From: Selaginella moellendorffii
Lineage: Eukaryota; Plantae; Lycopodiophyta
Reading direction: 5' to 3'
Assembly (NCBI RefSeq): GCF_000143415.4
Contig: NW_003314277.1
Coordinates: 69,426-133,425, forward strand
DNA length: 64,000 bases
Below the pieces are notes generated by a model that did not search any database, was not told the DNA's origin, and saw only the letters and a list, made by a program, of their open reading frames with translations. Below are positions 30,984-64,000 of this stretch, in pieces. The position numbers were made by a program, and so were the translations under genes. Every line of letters begins with the position of its first letter. The stretch's first letter is position 1.

Positions 30984-31743
30984 TTACATCATGTGAAATA
31001 CTGGAGTCTTGGTGAAAAACTCGGTGATCACCAAGGCGAGGAAGCCAAGCATCGCGGTTCGCCCATTCCAGCGCTCCGCCATGGCTCTAAATGGCCCAAG
31101 CGATCTGCTGTCCGGGCTCTCGCCCTTAAACATGGGCACCAGCGACGCGTACGCGAATAGCTGTGCCACCGCCAGAAAATGGAAAAGACCAGTGCTCCCC
31201 GGCGAGTAGAGCTGCTCCGCCACCGTTTGTCCCGTCATTCGCTCCACCGCGAATGCCCACACCAATCCTACCATTGCCTGTTTGACAAGTTCACGTTACT
31301 TACTTGGTTGATCTAGAAAAAAACGCGAAGAAAAATCACCAATCGCTTACCAGTCTTCCGTTGATCGTTTCCGGGCCGGCTCCATCGAACGCCATCAAGC
31401 TGGGGAACGATCGATCGCCAGTCTCTGGTCGCCTCTCGACCTCTGGCCTGGGATAGAATGATCCGGACGATGGGACGGCTCCAAACACGGAGCGCTTCTC
31501 CGACTCGTTCTCGGCCTGGTTCTTGAGCACCTCCTCGCGGGTGATCTCCTTCTTGGTGCCGTCGAGAACGCCACTGATGCCGCCATCGCCACCATCCCTT
31601 GATTTGTTCGAGGACGCTCTTACTACTACTAGATTTCTTGTCCCGATGGAGCTTGTGGATGATTGCGATTGGACATGGATCTTGTTGGAGATGAGCGAGG
31701 AAGAAGAGAGAGCTGCGATACCGCTGCCTGTGACGAGTGCCAT
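30984..31743 (-). CDS. ELIP: ELIP copy 2 (intron 31278-31350)
   Basis: Same two-exon structure and LHC motifs as copy 1; reading frame intact. Confidence 0.92.
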
Positions 31744-45200: not shown

Positions 45201-46740
45201 AGGAACCTTGATTGGACGAGCATCCCCGGTTGGAATCGGATGACGTGTGGCAATCTTAGCCCCAGACGATAGATCAAATTCAAAGAGATCAGAATACTCC
45301 TTCATGTGGGGACGGATCCTGATGATCATTTACGGCTGGTGGTGCCTTCGGTGTTTATTCCGCGATTTCTCCATGCCTACCATGATTCTCTTGTTCTAGG
45401 TGGGCATATAGGACACCGTCGTGTCACCGAAAAACTGTGCAGGTCTTTCTATTGGCCGGAGATGCGATGTGATATTATCCGGTATGTGCGTAGCTGTGTT
45501 TGGTGCCAAGCTCGTAATACTCCCCCTCGTGCTGTGGAAGGACGGTTGGAGTCAATTGCAGTTTCCCGTCCGTTTGAGTTAGTGGCGTTTGATCTTATGG
45601 GACTTTTCCACGGTTGATTGCTGGTAATGAGTATGTTATTTTTGCTTCTGACTACTTGACTCGTTGGGTGGAAGTTGGTGCTCTTGCTAGCGCCTTTGCA
45701 ACTGCTGTTAGATACTTCTTCCTCAATCGAGTGGTGTTCCAGCATTCTTGTCCAGAGCGGATTCTTTTGGATAATGGTCCCGCATTTATGGCTAAGGCAT
45801 TTCATGTTTTGACGTCTCAATTAGGGATATGCCACACTTTCACGAGTGCTTATCATCCACAATCAGACGGTCTGGTGGAATGGTTTGTTCAGACATTCAA
45901 GGGGATGATTGCGAAGTATGTGAACTTTTAGCATTCGGATTGGGATGGTTATTTGCCATCTCTTCGGTATGCATATGTTACAGGGGTGCAAAGTTCTATT
46001 GGTGCTTCACCATATAAACTTCTATATGGTCATGATCCAATATTACCAATGGAGTTGGGTTTACCTTCGCGATTGCCACGAGCTGCAGATGCTAGATCAT
46101 GGGATCGGTATTTAACGAGCATTCTTCCACTTGTTCGAGCAAAGTCTGCCGAACACTTAGGCTGCGTACAAGTGGGACAACAACGACATTACAACTCCCA
46201 TCATCGTCCACCTATGGAGTACAAAGTGGATGATTTGGTGTTAGTTCGTTTTCCCCATCTTACAGTACGTGGTTTATCTAAGGGGCTTCTTGTGCAATGG
46301 AAAGGACCGTATTGGGTGTTGCGGCAAGTTGGACCACAAGTTTATGAGGTTCGGCATGACGTTCAGCAGGCCGATCCTCCAGAAATTGTGCATGTGCAAT
46401 GGCTAAAACGTTTCGTACAAAGGGATCAAAAGGAGTTAATACCACCTACAAATCCACCGATGCCTCCTTTTTACATTCCTCCGGATCCCGGCCCATCTTC
46501 AAGAGAACCTTGATGGTCTTCCATTATCCCAAGAGGAGGGGATGATGTGAGGGCCAAGTGTACGGTTACGATGCCGTATACTAATATTAGCGTAATGGGA
46601 TTTTGGTAGCCGTTCGATTGGTTTCAATTTGGACCACTCACTCTTGTATATAAGCTAAGGTTTTTGGGCTAATAAATATGCACATTTCTGTATTCCCTTT
46701 CCATATATATATATATATATATAAATAAGTGCTTGGAATA
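42212..46740 (+). mobile_element. Ty3/Gypsy LTR retrotransposon with short (~165 bp) LTRs and an inverted RT segment; defective
   Basis: 5' LTR 42212-42375 (TGTGAG...CTCACA). PBS TGGTGGAGATGAGGGG at 42377. gag with CCHC knuckle (CWVCDEVGHTYRHC), protease LVDTG...ILGMDWL. RT (FIDD) on the minus strand, 44535-45308. Integrase HHCC, core and GPY at 45309-46513. PPT 46531-46542; 3' LTR from 46546. Confidence 0.95.
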
Positions 46741-46763
46741 TGGAAAGGGAATACAGAAATGTG

Positions 46764-46775
46764 CATATATATATC

Positions 46776-46818
<43 letters not shown>

Positions 46819-54335: not shown

Positions 54336-54701
54336 TTTTTTGAGCTGGGAGCTAGCTAGAACAAAATTCAACAGTGCAACAATGAGCTACTTTCTTTGAT
54401 GTTTGATGGCAAATGACACACAGCTATTTATACGGAGTGGGGATTGTATAACGTGGCAAAATTGACTTTCCATACGTGGCAAAATCGAGGTTTCGGCTCG
54501 TGTCCACTGTATGTGTCGCATCTTGTGCGGTGAAAATGGCCACAGGTAAAAGTTATTTGATTTTACAAGACAAAGTTCCTCTCTATACAGATGTGTTGGT
54601 TTAAAACTCACCCAGGCGTTTTGTCACGGGATCCTGTAGAGTAACCTGCAGCATGCAAGCTGCACTGCCGTCGTCGCGGGTCCTTGGTAAACCCGTTTTT
54701 T

Positions 54702-54801
54702 NNNNNNNNNNNNNNNNNNNNNNNNNNNNNNNNNNNNNNNNNNNNNNNNNNNNNNNNNNNNNNNNNNNNNNNNNNNNNNNNNNNNNNNNNNNNNNNNNNN
54801 N
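54702..54801. other. Assembly gap (100 N)
   Basis: Run of N. Confidence 1.
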
Positions 54802-55120
54802 AGAAGGAAAAAAAATAATTCAACCATAAAAATGCAAATCAGTACAATGGCACAAGATTGCAATGCTGAAAAGACTGAGAGCTTTAGCCAACAGTTAGCC
54901 CCTCTATTTAGCATAGGAGGTTGCTTGGTGTGCTAAGTAGAGGGGCACTGTTGTTTGGTGTGATAAGTAGAGACTTCCTGTAACACAACATGTTGTTTCA
55001 CTCCCTCTCCACTTATGTGGAGGTGCACCTCCTTTTTGTATTTTCTGCCCATCTCCCATATGTTGCCACATGACCCTTCTGCCTACTACTATCGAAAACG
55101 CTTAGGTGAGTTTGACACCA

Positions 55121-55721
55121 ACACATCTGTATAGAGAGGAACTTTGTCTTGTAAAATCAAATAAAAAATAAATATTGCACTCATGATAACAACAACAGCT
55201 TATATCATGAATGTTGATTCATATGAGATTTTGAGACAAAGAAGTGCTTATTAATAATAATGAAAAATCAAAACAAACTTGCAATTATCTATTTCCAAAA
55301 GGGATTGCATTATATTTGTTTATTTGAATACATACGAATTAGACTCCTCAAATTTAATGATTATATAAACTGCTGAATCAAGCCCAAGGGATTATAAGAA
55401 GTTTAAAGAATCATTGTCCTGGATTTAGTGGATTTGTGTGAGTCACTTATAAGTTGCATTTTTTCTATTTATTATAAACATATATATTTATGTAAAGGAG
55501 TTATTGCAATAATTTTTTTCCTTTTTTACCAAATAATCTAAAGGTCAGCATCATGAATTTATAAAAACAACTTACAAAGCTAAACAAATTGAACACATGA
55601 AAATATCTTACTTTCATTAACATCTACATTAAAAATGCCATAGTTTTTTTAAAGTAGGGAATGATAATATTTTTACTTTCCATATTTTTTTACAACCCAA
55701 TAGATGAAAAAAACATATGGA
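55121..55721. repeat. Left arm of a ~600-bp near-identical inverted repeat (right arm ~63294-63894)
   Basis: CACATCTGTATAGAGAGGAACTTTG...AAACATATGG is the reverse complement of 63294-63894. A diverged direct copy lies at ~33302-33835 and a short inverted copy at 54555-54622. Confidence 0.9.
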
Positions 55722-56438
55722 ACCGAATTAATGTATAATTGATTTTCTTTACAAAAATAAAAATGCAAATAAAATGAAAACACCAACCTATAGGCTGGTG
55801 TAACACTGGAAAGCAATCAATAGGCTATTACAATAATAGTTCCATCATCCATCACTCAAACCAAGGGAAATTACATACAGGCAAAAGCAAATCTTCCCCC
55901 ATTAATGATACTTTTCGAAATAAGAATCAATGGATATTATTTTTTGCTTTATTGGATGCTCAAAATCTAATAGTATTTAAGCTTCCAACCTATATGTTTA
56001 TATTTATAATTATCTAAAATTTTATACAGTTCAGTTTAGCTAGCTTAAGCTAGTGGTTAGAGAAGTGACTAGATCAACACCTTGCCATCACCACTTCAGG
56101 TTCTTGAATGCCACGAGGTCACCTTAATTGAGGAGCCACAAGCCATGTAAATAGAAATGTCAAACTGTGTTAGTGCTGAAAGGTCAAATGAAAGAGAAAT
56201 TATGTGATATAGGTTATAGGCATAAGGAAGTTCCAATGGATGCAACTTGATATGAACCACAGGAATATTCCAAGAATATTTTATGGCATGTGGGATTTAA
56301 GGCCGTAATGCATTAAGGGCTGGGAGGTTGGCCTAGGGTTTGCTCTCTTGTTCATTTCATTAGTATAAGAGTAGCACATTCTTTTAGGGATGGCGGGTGA
56401 GCAAAACATTGATCCTAATGAGGAGTATGGTATTAATG

Positions 56439-56999
56439 TGTAAGCAACCAAAGGAAATGACTCAAGAGAAGATCCATAGGGGTTCAAATATAAAGGGAAA
56501 AGGCCCATGAACAAAAGTGCATCTTCTTTTCCAATCCGTTAAGGGTTTTGGGATATTTGAGGTTAAACGTACTTGGGTTTGAATTGTACTGGGCTGAGTG
56601 AGTTTACATTTGGTATAAGAGTGGTCTCAGGTCTAACTCTGTTGGTTGGCTAAGAGAATCATACCACATATTGATTGACATCTAGTAGGTCTAGTTTGCT
56701 CTCAATTGGGCTCGACCCGAGGGGTAGGGTGTCAAGAGAGCGGGGCTCGAGAGAGAGTTGCGCCTCTCAGTTTCCGTTCACGAGGGCGTAAACTTGCAAG
56801 GAAGCGTGATGGATTGTAAGCAACTAAAGGGAACGACTCGAGAGACAATCCATAAGGGTTCAAATATAAGGGAAAGGGCCTATGAACAAGAGTGCACCCC
56901 CGTTTCCAAAGTCTTGGGATATTTAGGGTTAAGCGTCCTTGGGTTTGAATAGTACTGGGCTGGGTGACCTCCCAGGAAGTCCAATCTCAGGAGCATACA
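56439..56999 (+). mobile_element. Cassandra-like TRIM (non-autonomous LTR element) with 5S-rRNA-derived LTR segments, nested in the chromovirus
   Basis: LTR1 56439-56608 (TGTAAG...TTTACA), PBS TGGTATAAGAG at 56611, ~200-bp non-coding interior, purine-rich tract, LTR2 56815-56999 (TGTAAG...ATACA). TSD TAATG at 56434-56438 and 57000-57004. Confidence 0.88.
56928..56982 (+). promoter_or_regulatory. 5S rRNA-like Pol III internal control region (A-box/IE/C-box) in the TRIM 3' LTR; degenerate copy at 56562-56601
   Basis: GTTAAGCGTCCTTGGGTTTGAATAGTACTGGGCTGGGTGACCTCCCAGGAAGTCC aligns without gaps to the 3' half of plant 5S rRNA (reference recalled from memory). Confidence 0.88.
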
Positions 57000-57024
57000 T
57001 AATGATGATAGCCATGACGATGCG

Positions 57025-57175
57025 AAAGAGACTCTTGATAATGTCGTTGTGTGATGATAGCCAAAGAGACTCTTGATAATGTCGTTGTGTGATGATAGCC
57101 AAAGAGACTCTTGATAATGTCGTTGTGTGATGATAGCCATGACGATGTGGAAGAGACTTTTGATGATGTCGTTGT
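57025..57175. repeat. 38-bp minisatellite (3 perfect copies plus 1 degenerate)
   Basis: AAAGAGACTCTTGATAATGTCGTTGTGTGATGATAGCC repeated head-to-tail. Confidence 0.9.
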
Positions 57176-60100
57176 GCGGCAAGGATGCCAGATTTCTGAG
57201 GTTTAGAGCGACATAAAGGAAGTTAAGGACTCGATCAATCTCACTAAGGATTTCTTGTTTCGCATGGACCCTCAAGGGTGCAATCAATCTCATGTCCATG
57301 ATTACCATTGGTACGTCAAGCATGCCAAGGATTATGGTATTGTGGAATAGTGGGAAAGGATTATGGTATTGTGGAATTGTGGGAAAGTTGTTGGATTCAC
57401 AATCCTTATGAGGATAAAGTGAAGATAGATTTCATTGTGACAAAGCTTATGGGCCATGTTTTTTTGTGGTGAAAGAACTACATCAAAGCTAATCCGAAGT
57501 CGACTTCTTGGACTAATTTAATAAAGGTTTTCCATGTTTCATTTGTCAAGAAGTTTGAAGAGGTTGATTTCATGAACCAATTGTTAGAGATCCTACAGAG
57601 GACTTTGTCTATGGATGCGTATGCTCGCAAATTTCCTGACCTTTGCCTTAATCTTACAAGCATCTATAATGAGTTGCTAAAGGTGCAATGTTTCATCAAA
57701 AGATTGAGCTCAGTGGATGTGTAGTAGAAGGTCAAGAAGGATTTTCCAGCAACATTGACTGATGCTATCACTAAGGCTCAAATTTTTTCACCTGAACTGT
57801 CAGTCAACTTGGTCAACTCTAGTCAACGAGATGGTCTACAGAGTAGTCAATATGATGACCAGCTTGCCAATGCTTCATATTCAGGGAAGAAACAGCCATT
57901 ATTCCATCGTGGTTCGAATAATAGAGATGGTAATGAGGCCAAAAGACATCGTTTGAACTAGCGAGAGAAAAACAAGGTGGAGGGCAATTATTTTTGTTGT
58001 CACAAGGCTGGACATCATGGCAAGGATTGTCCTTTTGTGAAAGGATAAAAAAATGCTAAGATGAATATGGTGGAATCCATTGTGGATACAACTCAGGCAT
58101 TTGCTGTGGTGGCTCTTCCACACCCTATGGCAAAAGTTCAAGAATCTAAGTTTCAAGTTCGTATCAACTCTATAGAGATTAATGGTTCTATGCGCAATCA
58201 ATTTATGAAGGCCAAAGGGGACATTCAGGGTAGTGTTGTTAGTATTCTTTTCAATCCAAGTGCTACTCACAATTTTTTGAGCTCCAAGGTGGTGAAAAAA
58301 CTTGGTTTGCCTGTGGAAAGAGTTCAGTAATCTACAAGGTGGTTATGGCAAATGGACATGGCACTCGTGTTTACAGTGAATAAGCTCTAAGTGTTCCTTT
58401 GACAGTTCAAGGGATTCTCAACCATCCTTCGTTCCAAGTTATGGATCTTGGTCACACCGACATTATTTTTGGGAAGGAATGGTTTTATGACAAGAAGCCA
58501 GGGATTGATTAGGAGTGTAATGTTCTGCGTATTAAAGTTGGTGGCATTATAAAAGAGATTGTCAGGACAGATAATAGTGATACCCCATTGATTAACGCTT
58601 TGGAGTTGGTGATATGCACACATGAGATAGCTAATTCTTTTGTGGTGTACATGTTTCTTTCTAATATGATCATGTCTGATTTGGAGTATGTTCATGGGCA
58701 TGGGGCTAGGGTGGATTCCATACAGGAGGAGTTTTGTGACGTATTTCCGAATGAGTTACTTGATGGTTTACCTCCTGAATGTGGCATTCAGCATAAGATT
58801 GACTTGGTTCTTAGAGCTACTCCTTATCAGCGACAACTAACTTATACTAGTCCTGCTGAAGATGAAAAGATTAATAGGCAGCTTGCTAAATACCTTCGGA
58901 AAGGGTGGTTACAGATCAACAAGTCCCCTTGGGCTGCTCTAGTGGTGATGGTCAAAAAGAAAGATGGTATATGGCATTTTTGCGTGAACTATAAGGGATT
59001 GAATGATAGGATAGTGAAGAATATGTTCCCGATCCCTCATATCGATGATTTGCTCGATTGTCTTCGTGGTGCTTGATATTTTTTGAAGATTGATTTGAGG
59101 CAAAGGTATCATCAGATTTGTGTCAAGCCAAAGGATGTTTCGAAAATTGCATTTTGGATAAAGACAGGTCACTACAAGTTTTTAGTGATGCTGTTTGGTT
59201 TGACAAATGCTCCTGCAACTTTTCAGAGATTGATGAATCAAGTTCTACAACCTTACTTGGGAAAGTTTGCAATTGATTATTTTGATGATATCTTGGTATT
59301 TAACTCTTCCATGGAGGAACATGAAATGCATGTGCAAAATGTTTTACAACTTTTGAGGGACAACAAACTTTACTCAAAGTTATCCAAGTGTGAGTTTTTT
59401 TTAGAGGAGATTGGATATCTTGGGCATTTGATTTCGGTACATGGAGTGAGAGTTGATCCCACAAAGATTCAAGTCATGGTTGATTAGCCTATACCTTTGA
59501 CAGTGCATGATCTTTGTAGTTTCCTTGGTATGGTTAGAGTTTTTTGACAATTTGTGAAGGACTTTTCAGGGATAGCAGCCCCTTTAACTAATCTTCTCTA
59601 GAACACATCAAAACATGCTACTATTTATGGTTGGGATGAGAAGTGTGAAGTGGCATTTCAACATTTGAAGTAATGTTGTATCTCTGCTCTAGTGTTGAAG
59701 ATTTTTGATCTTGAAAAGCCTCTTGTGGTTGAGACAGATGCAAGTGACATTGTTATTAGAGCCGTATTGTTTCAAGTTGAGCATCCTCTTGCGTACATGA
59801 GCCATAAGTTTGATGCCACACAGTGGAATTGGCCTACTCGAGACAAAGAGTTGTATGTTGTGATTGCTACTGTGAAGGAATGGCAACATTATCTATATGG
59901 ATCAGACTTCCATGTGGATTTAGACCATCAATCACTCCAATATTTCAGTCGACAAAAGGATTTTCGAGGCTATCTTGCTCGTTGGCAAGAGTTCCTACAG
60001 GAAATGTCTGTTAAGATCCAGTATAAGCATGGAGGTGACAATAAGGTGGCTGATGCATTATCCAAGATGGTAAATTCTATCTCATTTGTGAAGCTATCTA

Positions 60101-62209
60101 GCAATCTCTTGGATGAGCTTAAGGAGTTTGTTGACTTTGACTCCTTTATCACTGATACTCGCGTGAAGGTTTTGTTGAGGGACGCCTCTACAGATTTGAA
60201 GGGTGACAAGTTTGCGTTATTCGAAATACGAGATGGAATCCTGGTGAAAAAGGGATGTGTAGTGGTTCCTCGTGTTGACAAACTCATCAAACAAATTTTG
60301 GTTGAGTGTCATGATGTGCCAAGTGCTGGGCATCTAGGGGTATTGAAAACGTATATATTGGTGAAGAGGCATTTCTTTTGGCCTGGGATGAAGTCAGATG
60401 CTGAGAAGTACATATATGGTTGTTTGACTTGCTAAGCGGTCAAAGTTGATCATCAGAAGCTTCTTGACCTCTATCATCCTTTACATGTACCCGAGAATAA
60501 ATGGGATAGCATCTCAATAGACTTTATCATTGATTTGCCCAAAACCTTTTGAGGAAATGATGCTATTTGGGTTGTTGTGGATCGTTTAACGAAAATGGCT
60601 CACTTCTTCCTTGTGAAGACAACGATAAAAGCTTTTGAACTTGCTCAATTGTTTGTAGACCGATTATTCAATCTCTATGGTTTGCCAGGTGACATTGTGA
60701 GTGATTGGGATCCCAAGTTCACGTCCAAGTTTTGGCAAACGGTCTTTGAGAAGCTAGAGACTAAGCTGAGCATGAGTAGTGGTGAACATCCACAATCTGA
60801 TGGGCAGACAGAGCGCATGAATCAGCTATTAGAAAATATGCTAAGGTCTTTTGTGGGAAACTTGACTCAATAAAGAGTATGGGAAAAATACTTGCCTTTG
60901 CTTCAGTTTTCTCACAATTGCACTCATCAATCGGCTATTGGCATGTCTCCCTTTATAGTGATGTATAGTTATGAGTCTAAGTCTTTTGTGAGTTTGAATT
61001 TGGCTTTGATTTGGGTACCTCATACTTGTGATTTCTTGGAGGATATGCAAAATAAGCTTTAGTTAGCAAAGTTGAATATGTGGCAAGCTCAAAAGTGAGA
61101 CAAAAGATTGGCTGATGAGCATCATCGTCATCAAGAGTATAAAGTTGGTGACAAGGTTTTCCTTATGCTGTCAGATGCACAATAGTCTCTGAAAGGAGGT
61201 GGCAGTGCTAAATTGTCTCCATGGTATTGTGGACCTTGAACAATTTTACAGCAGATAGGGGATCTTGCATACACTTTGGACTTGCCAGTTAATTTGAAGA
61301 TTCATCCAACATTCCATGTGAGCAAACTTAAAGCGTGTTTGCACTCTGGTGATATTGTGGATCAGTCCATCATCCAGGTTTCAGAGATGTAGAGAAAGTT
61401 GGTCCAGCCAATATTCTTGCTCAAAGATTGGTGAAAACACACTGGAAGACCACTAAGGAGTTGTTAGTTCAATGGAATGGTTATTCTATGGACAAAGCTA
61501 TATGGGAAACTGAAAATGACGTGAAGAGAGTGTTTCTGAGTTTTGGTTATGACTTGAATGACATTCCTGAGGAAGGGGAGAATTGAGTTCTATAGCCATA
61601 TTGCTATATTATTTGAGCTATATGTTCTATTCTCATTCTTTTGTTTCTATTACCGTATTGTCATATGAGAAAGCCGTATTACTTTCTTTCTTTCGTGGCT
61701 ATTTGTTGCGATGTTGATGTTGCCATTTGCACATTTTTTCTCCATGGCTGTATTGCCTTGGACTCCCTTCATATGAGGCTTGTTTAGCTTCTTGAGGCTA
61801 TTGTATGTGGCTGGGTCATGCGGGAGGGAGAATGACATGAACCACAGGAATATTCCAAGAATATTCCATGGCCTATGGGATTTAAAGCCATAACACCTTA
61901 AGAGTTGGGAGGTTGGCCTAGGGTTCGCTCTCTTGTTCGTTTCACAATTGTTCATGCATAACACATTTAGAGCTCTCCAAGATCAAAATCACGGATGGTG
62001 GCAGAGGAGCTCGTGTGGCAACACAGGTGAGTCTCTCTCCTCAGCCAAGCCATCTTGAGCATATGCTACAGGTTCACAAGTAGTTCCTGTGCATAATCAA
62101 GATGCCCGACTTGGGCACTATGGTGGAAGTGCATAAGCAGTGAGCATTACATTCCAGCAAGCAGGATCAAGCTCTGGCATTCTTTCAAAGAATGTCAATT
62201 ACATTTTAA

Positions 62210-62826
62210 GTCTGGAGTCTTACAATATGATTATACAATACAAAATGATATATATGGTCCTTTAAGCATGACAAAGTGCTCCCCTGCGAGTAGAGCTGCT
62301 CCACCACCGTTTGTCCCGTCATTTGCTCCACTGCAAATGCCCACACCAATCCAACCATTGCCTGTTTGGCAGGTTCACATTAGTTACTTGGTTGATCTAG
62401 AAAAAAACACGAAGAAAAATCACTAATTGCTTACCAGTCTTCTGTTGATCATTTCTGGGCCAGCTCCATCAAACGCCATCAAGCTGGGGAACGATCGATC
62501 GCCAGTCTCTAGTCGCCTCTCAACCTCTGGCCTGGGATAGAGCGATCCGGACAATGGGACGGCTCCAAACACGGAGCGCTTCTCCGACTCGTTCTCGGCC
62601 TGGTTCTTGAGCACTCCTCGCGGGTTATCTCCTTCTTGGTGCCGTCGAGAACGCCACTGATGCCGCCATCACCACCATCCCTTGATTTGTTCAAGGACAC
62701 TCTTACTACTACTAGATTTCTTGTCCCGATGGAGCTTGTGGGCGATTGCGATTGGACATGGATTTTGTTGGAGATGAGCGAGGAAGAAGAGAGAGCTGTG
62801 ATACCACTGCCTGAGATGAGTGCCAT
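62210..62826 (-). pseudogene. ELIP copy 5, pseudogene
   Basis: 1-bp deletion near 62614, most of exon 2 replaced by ~55 bp of filler (62221-62275), ABRE mutated to ACATGGC. Confidence 0.9.
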
Positions 62827-63293
62827 TGTTTTGAGCTGCAAGTTAGCTAGCAAAAAATTCAACTGTGCAATGAGCTACTTTCTTTTACGTTTGAGATAAA
62901 GGTACTTATATGGTATGGGGACCGTACATGGCAAAATTTAGATCCTGGCTCGTGTCCACTGTATGTGTCACACATCTTTTGCGGTGAAAATGGCCGAAGG
63001 TGAAACTTCTCTAGAGAATGCAAGGTGTGATATTTTGGGCTTTCATTTTGTTTTCCAATCAAATTCGTACACAGGGATGCTCTTTTGTCTGCACAATAAG
63101 CATGTTAATGTAATGCTGTTACTTTAAAATATTAAACAAGATTGTGTTGCATTGTAGCAACCCTTGGTTTGTTTTTGTTTTTAAATATTTTTTATTACTA
63201 TATATAATTTTTTATAATCTGTCCAATATGCAGGTGTTATTCCTGCTTTTGTATATATTACATCTTTTATCCATATAAGATTTAAATTCGGCT

Positions 63294-63894
63294 CCATATG
63301 TTTTTTTCATCTATTGGGTTGTAAAAAAAATATGGAAAGTAAAAATATTATCATTCCCTACTTTTAAAAAAACTATGGCATTTTTAATGTAGATGTTAAT
63401 GAAAGTAAGATATTTTCATGTGTTCAATTTGTTTAGCTTTGTAAGTTGTTTTTATAAATTCATGATGCTGACCTTTAGATTATTTGGTAAAAAAGGAAAA
63501 AAATTATTGCAATAACTCCTTTACATAAATATATATGTTTATAATAAATAGAAAAAATGCAACTTATAAGTGACTCACACAAATCCACTAAATCCAGGAC
63601 AATGATTCTTTAAACTTCTTATAATCCCTTGGGCTTGATTCAGCAGTTTATATAATCATTAAATTTGAGGAGTCTAATTCGTATGTATTCAAATAAACAA
63701 ATATAATGCAATCCCTTTTGGAAATAGATAATTGCAAGTTTGTTTTGATTTTTCATTATTATTAATAAGCACTTCTTTGTCTCAAAATCTCATATGAATC
63801 AACATTCATGATATAAGCTGTTGTTGTTATCATGAGTGCAATATTTATTTTTTATTTGATTTTACAAGACAAAGTTCCTCTCTATACAGATGTG
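63294..63894. repeat. Right arm of the ~600-bp inverted repeat
   Basis: Reverse complement of 55121-55721. Confidence 0.9.
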
Positions 63895-64000
63895 GAGGTT
63901 TCAAACTCACCCAGGCGTTTTCACTATAAAGAAGAGGAAGAGAGTTGAGTGAGACATAAGACAACATCATGGAAAACTCGTACAGTCTTGAAGAACCAAA

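Follow-up and report, generated by a model that had tools for sequence, protein, structure and literature searches.

To our knowledge, Cassandra is the only validated lineage of long terminal repeat (LTR) retrotransposons with an RNA polymerase III (Pol III) promoter. The present analysis concerned a decayed, non-coding LTR element of 561 bp, a TRIM (terminal-repeat retrotransposon in miniature), located at positions 56439–56999 (+ strand) of a 64-kb stretch of lycophyte DNA (the window, meaning the whole stretch analysed). It was probably a dead copy of an abundant TRIM family carrying a tract derived from 5S ribosomal RNA (rRNA) in its LTRs, the family being of Cassandra type, likely transcribed by Pol III, and presumably mobilised by the proteins of an autonomous element. 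The presence in a lycophyte of a Cassandra-like TRIM with a 5S-derived promoter tract was supported at the level of structure.

The hallmark of the Cassandra lineage was a 5S-related stretch in the LTR, accompanied by a methionine (Met) primer-binding site (PBS) and a polypurine tract (PPT) (Maiwald 2024, PMC10853983). Table S2 of that paper contained 81 Cassandra elements, in which the similarity to 5S extended over just 66–97 nt and the typical boxes read GGTTAAGCGTGC and AGGATGGGTG; three fern entries of the same table displayed total lengths of 565–606 bp, LTRs of 187–208 bp, interiors of 190–193 bp, and a Met PBS. Deposited fern Cassandras were also given in its supplement, under accessions AY860311 and AY860313. 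The PBS of fern Cassandras was located 8 nt from the 5S part (PMC7215508). Pol III transcription of Cassandra had been reported, as summarised in PMC10886601, where the RNA was described as starting and ending inside the 5S part, leaving an 18-nt terminal repeat. The range given in PMC10853983 and PMC10946416 comprised ferns, monocots, and dicots, but not gymnosperms; no lycophytes were found among the elements in the supplement of PMC10853983, and full-text literature searches returned no report of Cassandra in a lycophyte. Two further systems, both described in PMC10886601 (Kojima 2024), were related: (i) Ajax, a nemertean TRIMp3 with a partial 5S promoter in its LTR, a Leu-tRNA PBS, and a 5S part resembling SINE3; and (ii) Helenus-1_SMo of Selaginella moellendorffii, a TRIM bearing a tRNA-like sequence, whose LTRs measured 120 bp and whose interior measured 85 bp.

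The element in the window was composed of five consecutive parts, all on the + strand: (i) a 170-bp 5′ LTR (56439–56608; TGTAAG...TTTACA), delimited by the sequence, the LTR alignment, and the loose ends of contigs (see below); (ii) after a 2-nt TT spacer, a decayed PBS of initiator-Met type, TGGTATAAGAGT (56611–56622), which matched 10 of the 12 letters of the canonical motif; (iii) a non-coding interior (56623–56797) with no tRNA gene and no Pfam-bearing or long sense open reading frame (ORF), the longest + strand stop-to-stop frame touching it being 74 aa; (iv) a purine-rich, PPT-like tract (56798–56814) that directly abutted the 3′ LTR; and (v) a 185-bp 3′ LTR (56815–56999; TGTAAG...ACA), delimited by the LTR alignment and contigs of public runs. 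The PPT-like tract was weak; its end, ...GATGGAT, was similar to PPT strings given for some published Cassandras, and its position 56809 was G in most contigs of the family. The element was flanked by two copies of a TAATG target-site duplication (56434–56438 and 57000–57004), both identified from the sequence and from empty-site contigs. A first-pass annotation of the sequence had claimed a unit of 561 bp whose LTRs were 170 and 185 bp long, whose PBS was of Met type, and whose interior was non-coding, and re-examination gave the same coordinates and anatomy. With two short LTRs, no gag/pol, and a length below ~1 kb, the element fell within the size class of a Cassandra.

The alignment of the 5′ and 3′ LTRs contained 135 identical columns, 27 mismatches (20 transitions and 7 transversions), and 34 gap columns, giving 16.7% mismatches over 162 sites and a Kimura two-parameter distance of 0.19. 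The 3′ LTR lacked ~9 bp near 56910 that were present in the 5′ LTR and in most family contigs, and the 5′ LTR lacked ~24 bp at its 3′ end relative to the 3′ LTR. This copy was inactive, because the boxes of its 5′ LTR were damaged and ~24 bp deleted, its PBS carried two changes, and its LTRs were 17% different. No second copy of the TRIM was found in the window by BLAST, which returned just two 15-nt chance matches.

Public runs of the same species label were used to place this copy within its family: DNA contigs X1 to X3, all from one sample, and RNA run X6 (see below). The contigs were aligned to 56000–57500 and, separately, to the 3′ LTR (56815–57004, 190 bp), at a likeness of at least 80%. 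Empty-site contigs (one, two, and one in X1, X2, and X3, respectively) joined 56433 to 57000 with 566 bases skipped, five letters fitting either side, and a single TAATG, so that the exact duplication claimed at first pass was confirmed; they represented either an allele or a paralogous host copy without the TRIM. The contig pieces, which are not copy numbers, amounted to 9828 (X1), 10573 (X2), and 5256 (X3) on 56000–57500 and to 5358, 5329, and 2453 on the 3′ LTR, and in summed contig depth the LTRs exceeded the host flanks tens of times over. Loose contig ends were stacked exactly at the LTR tips: (i) 57, 60, and 39 ends in X1 to X3 directly before 56439, mutually unlike (agreement ~0.4); (ii) 41 and 48 ends before 56815; and (iii) 34 contigs behind 56999 (agreement 0.38). 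These ends were unlike each other, and many different insertion sites were therefore represented. Other genomic copies of the family were accordingly present, with thousands of contig pieces matching the LTR and dozens ending at its tips in unlike flanks, and the family had a high copy number. Some contig joints ran backwards, and a tandem-array reading of them was rejected, since they mostly reflected contigs picking the better-matching LTR. One X2 contig contained an LTR end, 38 letters with a PBS-like start and a PPT-like end, and an LTR start; it was a family member or an array unit.

The Rfam model 5S_rRNA (RF00001) matched the 3′ LTR at 56909–56996 (+ strand) with 26.9 bits and an E value of 0.0032 in an 801-bp local scan, and in the alignment two stretches, UAGUACUGGG and UGGGUGACC, agreed with the consensus at every letter, the identical runs being 10 and 9 letters long. 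Within this match, a box A-like motif GGTTAAGCGTCC (56927–56938, + strand; one mismatch to RGTTAAGYRHGY) was followed after exactly 18 nt by a box C-like motif GGGCTGGGTGACC (56957–56969, + strand; one mismatch to RRRATRGGTRACY). The published Cassandra query (PMC7215508), consisting of box A RGTTAAGYRHGY, 18 nt, and box C RRRATRGGTRACY, was used as an independent test: it had a single match in the window, at 56927–56969, with two mismatches (one per box), against a chance expectation of 0.02 per window and any match at all in 2 of 100 shuffles. The counterpart in the 5′ LTR, recognised by alignment to the 3′ LTR tract, was a decayed 5S-derived tract (56561–56603, + strand) with a box A-like motif at 56561–56572, an 18-nt spacer, and a box C-like motif at 56591–56603; its boxes had two and three mismatches to the published ones, respectively, as counted by eye, and the tract was not reported by the RF00001 scan at E values up to 10. 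RF00001 and the box query together thus supported the first-pass proposal that each LTR carries a tract derived from 5S and spanning box A to box C, which is sense-oriented and lies beside the PBS.

The DNA runs on the 3′ LTR related this tract to the family. The box A and box C letters of the 3′ LTR were the family majority reading, and no other letter reached 25% of DNA depth at the mismatched position of box A. The 56-nt 5S core departed from the family majority at 56974 only (A here, G in most), and this A was the result of CpG decay; further departures of the 3′ LTR lay at 56847, 56881, 56902, 56925, and 56985. The suggestion that decay was mostly of C>T/G>A type agreed with four of the six differences between the 3′ LTR and the family majority.

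The possibility that the LTR of an ordinary TRIM resembles 5S by chance would be in keeping with the Rfam score, since 26.9 bits lay below the gathering score of 38, the E value of the same match rose to 0.25 over the whole window, and no Rfam match in the window, RF00001 included, reached its gathering threshold; the 5S check proposed at first pass was therefore positive on the local scale and fell short at the gathering threshold and window-wide. This explanation was extremely improbable, given that an independent published motif with fixed spacing matched at an expectation of 0.02, that runs of 10 and 9 letters were identical to the 5S consensus, and that true 5S-like RNA reads cross-mapped onto the tract. 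Judged from these matches, the 5S resemblance appeared to be more than chance, while being weak by the covariance model.

The element was assigned to the Cassandra type because its LTRs carried, beside the PBS, a tract that derives from 5S and extends from box A to box C. Compared to the fern Cassandras (Nephrolepis exaltata, Didymochlaena, and Sphaeropteris), and by lengths and short motifs only, it displayed a similar size (561 bp in total, the LTRs measuring 170 and 185 bp and the interior 206 bp), a sense-oriented tract of 5S origin at the PBS end of the LTR, in which 18 nt separate box A from box C, and a Met PBS, canonical in most Selaginella family members and ~5 nt from the tract here. 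It differed from them in several respects: (i) its host was a lycophyte; (ii) each box was one family-wide letter off the published motif, and the published exact Cassandra search pattern would miss the Selaginella family; and (iii) there was no T-run after the tract, no recognisable 5S 5′ half, and no 5S-like fold. As a Cassandra-type element, the family would use its 5S-derived LTR tract as an internal Pol III promoter, the initiator Met-tRNA would prime reverse transcription, and the proteins of an autonomous LTR retrotransposon would presumably reverse-transcribe and insert the TRIM in trans.

Several observations weighed against this assignment, and they came from the tract and from the RNA reads. 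Apart from the sub-threshold Rfam score given above, the clear 5S similarity was confined to ~56927–56982, about 56 nt; the 5S 5′ half was missing or replaced, with 32 model positions skipped in the RF00001 alignment; the helix I pairs in that alignment were non-standard; and no 5S-like fold of the tract was found (z −0.13 against shuffles). Both boxes were one letter off the published degenerate motifs throughout the family. The core was not measurably better conserved than its surroundings: 3 of its 56 positions were variable, compared with 8 of the 112 positions elsewhere in the LTR, where the author counted a position as variable if an alternative letter made up at least 25% of the depth in a DNA run. 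After the tract, neither LTR contained four consecutive T; two such runs (56527–56530 and 56546–56549) occurred upstream of box A, in the 5′ LTR only, and a transcript from a canonical Pol III start would include them, such a start (~50 nt before box A) placing an upstream run probably ~15–20 nt downstream of it, which may parallel the 18-nt terminal repeat described for Cassandra RNA.

These features could also describe a passenger relic, in which the 5S-derived tract would be inert and transcription of the family would depend on Pol II or on read-through out of adjacent genes, as in ordinary TRIMs: the boxes off the published motifs family-wide, the core without extra conservation (3/56 against 8/112), the missing terminator after the tract with T-runs upstream of box A instead, and the lack of a 5S-like fold all pointed that way. 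Such a relic was nevertheless rather unlikely, since the 18-nt spacing was exact and most of the family, represented by thousands of contig pieces, had kept both boxes, and since the same arrangement defined a lineage with reported Pol III transcription (as summarised in PMC10886601).

The RNA evidence came from run X6, of which ~12% was read. The depth across the TRIM interior was 8–12 per bin, and every first mate was on the minus strand, which corresponded to sense RNA given the usual stranded libraries; sense RNA of family members was thus present at a low level and extended across the PBS, connecting the LTR with the interior. The interior reads shared identical differences from this copy and therefore derived probably from one other locus. 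The 5S core was covered by ~90 reads, only ~10 of which were of the family's own type. On the unfavourable side, most core reads differed from the family at 56939, 56944, 56949, 56965, and 56970; no preferred RNA start or end was found on the tract or the interior in X6; and RNA-seq reads, whether of poly(A)-type or total RNA, cannot distinguish Pol II from Pol III. The absence of a defined start, together with 10 interior reads that shared the same variants as if from one locus, was again in line with a passenger relic. Upstream of the core, 35 reads resembled the 5S 5′ half and 39 reads something else. The read peak on the tract was accordingly rejected as a sign of element transcription, because most of its reads carried other letters and other upstream sequence; by these letters, most core reads stemmed not from the TRIM family but from 5S-like loci elsewhere, which may be true 5S genes or sister elements. 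Expression of the TRIM family was only weakly shown.

The reads from other loci had features of their own. About 80 X6 reads on 56927–56984 came from other 5S-like loci, in RNAs longer than mature 5S, and their downstream end was LTR-like (...TTTACA) and followed by unlike sequence; they may represent sister elements in which the 5S part is more complete, or true 5S genes that are read through.

For a Cassandra-type family in a lycophyte, it can tentatively be proposed that the Cassandra lineage predates the lycophyte–euphyllophyte split (>400 million years), with the fern-like architecture and a 5S-mimicking promoter kept in Selaginella. It is also possible that the Selaginella TRIM gained a 5S promoter fragment on its own and acquired Cassandra-like function without descent shared with the euphyllophyte elements, the source being, for example, a 5S pseudogene or a 5S-derived SINE (short interspersed nuclear element) inserted into the LTR, as proposed for the nemertean Ajax. 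The comparison with Ajax bore on this independent capture: in both elements only the 5S promoter part was recognisable in the LTR (box A, IE, and box C in Ajax; PMC10886601), and both had a 5-bp target duplication and no 5S fold, whereas Ajax differed by its Leu-tRNA PBS, its animal hosts, and its SINE3-like 5S part from the present plant element with its Met PBS. The Cassandra distribution was already patchy, because the lineage was reported from ferns and angiosperms but not from gymnosperms in PMC10853983 and PMC10946416, and independent capture would fit such a pattern. Selaginella also hosted the tRNA-bearing Helenus-1_SMo, so that Pol III promoter capture by TRIMs recurs there. Two points spoke for descent instead: the size, the LTR and interior lengths, the Met PBS, and the tract position were closely as in fern Cassandras, and published Cassandras likewise shared just 66–97 nt with 5S.

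Identity with TRIMs already described from this genome was also considered. Helenus and the present element occurred in the same host genus, both contained part of a Pol III-type small-RNA gene in their LTRs, and both were flanked by target duplications of 5 bp, but the LTR sequence of Helenus was tRNA-like and nothing of that kind was present here; in the window, ARAGORN found no tRNA gene and Rfam gave no tRNA match, and Helenus was rejected on these grounds. Eight TRIM subfamilies of S. moellendorffii, SmoRetroS1 to SmoRetroS8, none of them named Cassandra, were listed by Gao et al. 2016 (PMC4717578), whose Table 1 gave 8, 1,177, 10,158, and 1.19 in the S. moellendorffii row, figures read here as the numbers of subfamilies, of complete elements, and of copies overall, and as the percentage of the genome; the same paper stated that, Cassandra apart, TRIM families had yielded no 5S sequences. 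These subfamilies resembled the present family as abundant TRIMs of the same genome type, and the family may well be one of them, judging from the information given in that paper; SmoRetroS4 was rejected, since it was 393 bp long with an LTR of 104 bp. The family may well be catalogued already, as an unnamed TRIM or in Repbase.

The partner of the TRIM had been sought at first pass in the chromovirus that hosts it (see below), on the strength of a PBS variant present in both. The canonical Met PBS TGGTATCAGAGC followed the LTR end in 47 X2 contigs, 35 X3 contigs, and 8 RNA reads, and the C>A and C>T changes in the PBS of this copy were thus decay or a minority or private state, because most family copies were canonical; single-letter PBS variants of a like kind were present among published Cassandras, for example in Medicago and Setaria (PMC10853983 Table S2). 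The PBS-like site of the host departed from the canonical motif at three letters and did not turn up when up to two mismatches were allowed. By BLAST, the TRIM had no similarity to the host chromovirus or to any other part of the window. The partner suggestion was therefore not upheld beyond the common PBS type, the shared variant not being the state of the family and TRIM–host similarity being absent. That the host chromovirus family mobilises the TRIM was accordingly quite improbable: a Met-type PBS and a 5-bp target duplication were present in both, and the sole TRIM-related large element of S. moellendorffii found in PMC4717578 was Ty3-gypsy, but the PBS variant common to host and copy was not the family's state, no sequence similarity linked the two, nesting in a chromovirus was uninformative on partnership, and the Met PBS motif was no rarer than chance in the window (three found at up to two mismatches against 4.7 expected). 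One further Met-type PBS, with one mismatch to the canonical motif, was located on the minus strand at 62795–62806 beside a repeat family at 62.2–63.1 kb, and it probably belonged to another minus-strand LTR element.

The host of the TRIM was a decayed Ty3/gypsy chromovirus (56248–61944, + strand), recognised by its LTRs, its target-site duplication, and its Pfam domains. Its LTRs, 112 bp each (56248–56359 and 61833–61944), were 87.5% alike; its target-site duplication was CAACT/CAATT, the PPT GGGAGGGAGAA preceded the 3′ LTR, and many stops broke its frames. The Pfam domains, all on the + strand, were gag (57473–57724), protease (58049–58330), reverse transcriptase (RT; 59077–59487), RNase H plus integrase zinc domain (within 59674–60435), integrase core (60553–60873), and SH3 (61240–61392), followed by a chromodomain (61353–61586) with 23.4 bits, just below the cutoff of 25.1. 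Nesting of the TRIM near the start of a chromovirus, as annotated at first pass, was borne out by these domains, with the chromodomain just sub-cutoff; the TRIM was inserted 75 bp past the host 5′ LTR and 44 bp past an ATG. Excision of the element and one TAATG gave MAGEQNIDPNEEYGINDDSHDDA, as had been claimed for a restored host frame, but this frame stopped after 32 codons. Directly after the insertion site, 57003–57176 contained four tandem copies of a 38/49-nt unit in the host leader or the gag N-terminus, and the restored frame met stops because of these unit copies. The TRIM LTRs were no less diverged (16.7%, 162 sites) than the LTRs of the enclosing host (12.5%, 112 sites); the TRIM LTRs may have been non-identical at insertion or may be decaying more rapidly (the CpG observed/expected ratio was 0.54, compared with 0.86 in the window).

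The lycophyte setting proposed at first pass agreed with a germin-like ORF of the window, which shared 98% identity with a Selaginella moellendorffii protein across 93% of its length; S. moellendorffii also supplied the four matches ranking next, followed by the lycophyte Diphasiastrum at 65–73%, and the genome was therefore that of a Selaginella-type lycophyte. Other genes of the window included several pentatricopeptide repeat (PPR) genes, a BAHD transferase, and a KIN17-like ORF. Repeats were found at four further places: (i) a 638-bp inverted repeat pair (55094–55729 and 63285–63922, 98.7% identical) flanked the chromovirus and its surroundings and could represent the ends of a larger element, an inverted duplication, or an assembly effect, and a gap of 100 N (54701–54800) lay near its left arm; (ii) a ~4-kb segmental duplication (27.7–32.0 kb and 50.3–54.6 kb), with blocks 92–99% identical, contained PPR-repeat ORFs; (iii) a 300-bp repeat family had four copies in the window, at 31191, 34748, 53783, and 62275; and (iv) a long near-perfect hairpin at 46666–46777 was matched by many unrelated microRNA precursor models, on both strands and far below gathering, and was probably a palindromic simple repeat.

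The origin of Cassandra, its partner, and its link to 5S ribosomal DNA evolution are standing questions, and a 5S-bearing TRIM in Selaginella would extend Cassandra-type elements to lycophytes. The departure of each box by one letter from the published pattern would explain why pattern searches missed the family, and it suggests re-screening of other early-diverging plants with a looser model. An abundant 5S-TRIM in a lycophyte would mean either that Cassandra is ~150 million years older than proposed or that 5S capture took place repeatedly in plants, and either way it would offer a genome, both small and well assembled, that allows the copies, the 5S gene of the species itself, and candidate partners to be enumerated. 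In lycophytes, linkage of the 5S gene to the 35S unit has been reported (Wicke 2011, as cited in PMC3692318). If Cassandra indeed predates the lycophyte–euphyllophyte split, it would be the oldest traceable non-autonomous LTR retrotransposon lineage, the Selaginella family would provide a second, deeply diverged system for the co-evolution of element and host 5S promoters, and Selaginella would harbour both known plant TRIMp3 types, the tRNA-based Helenus and the 5S-based Cassandra.

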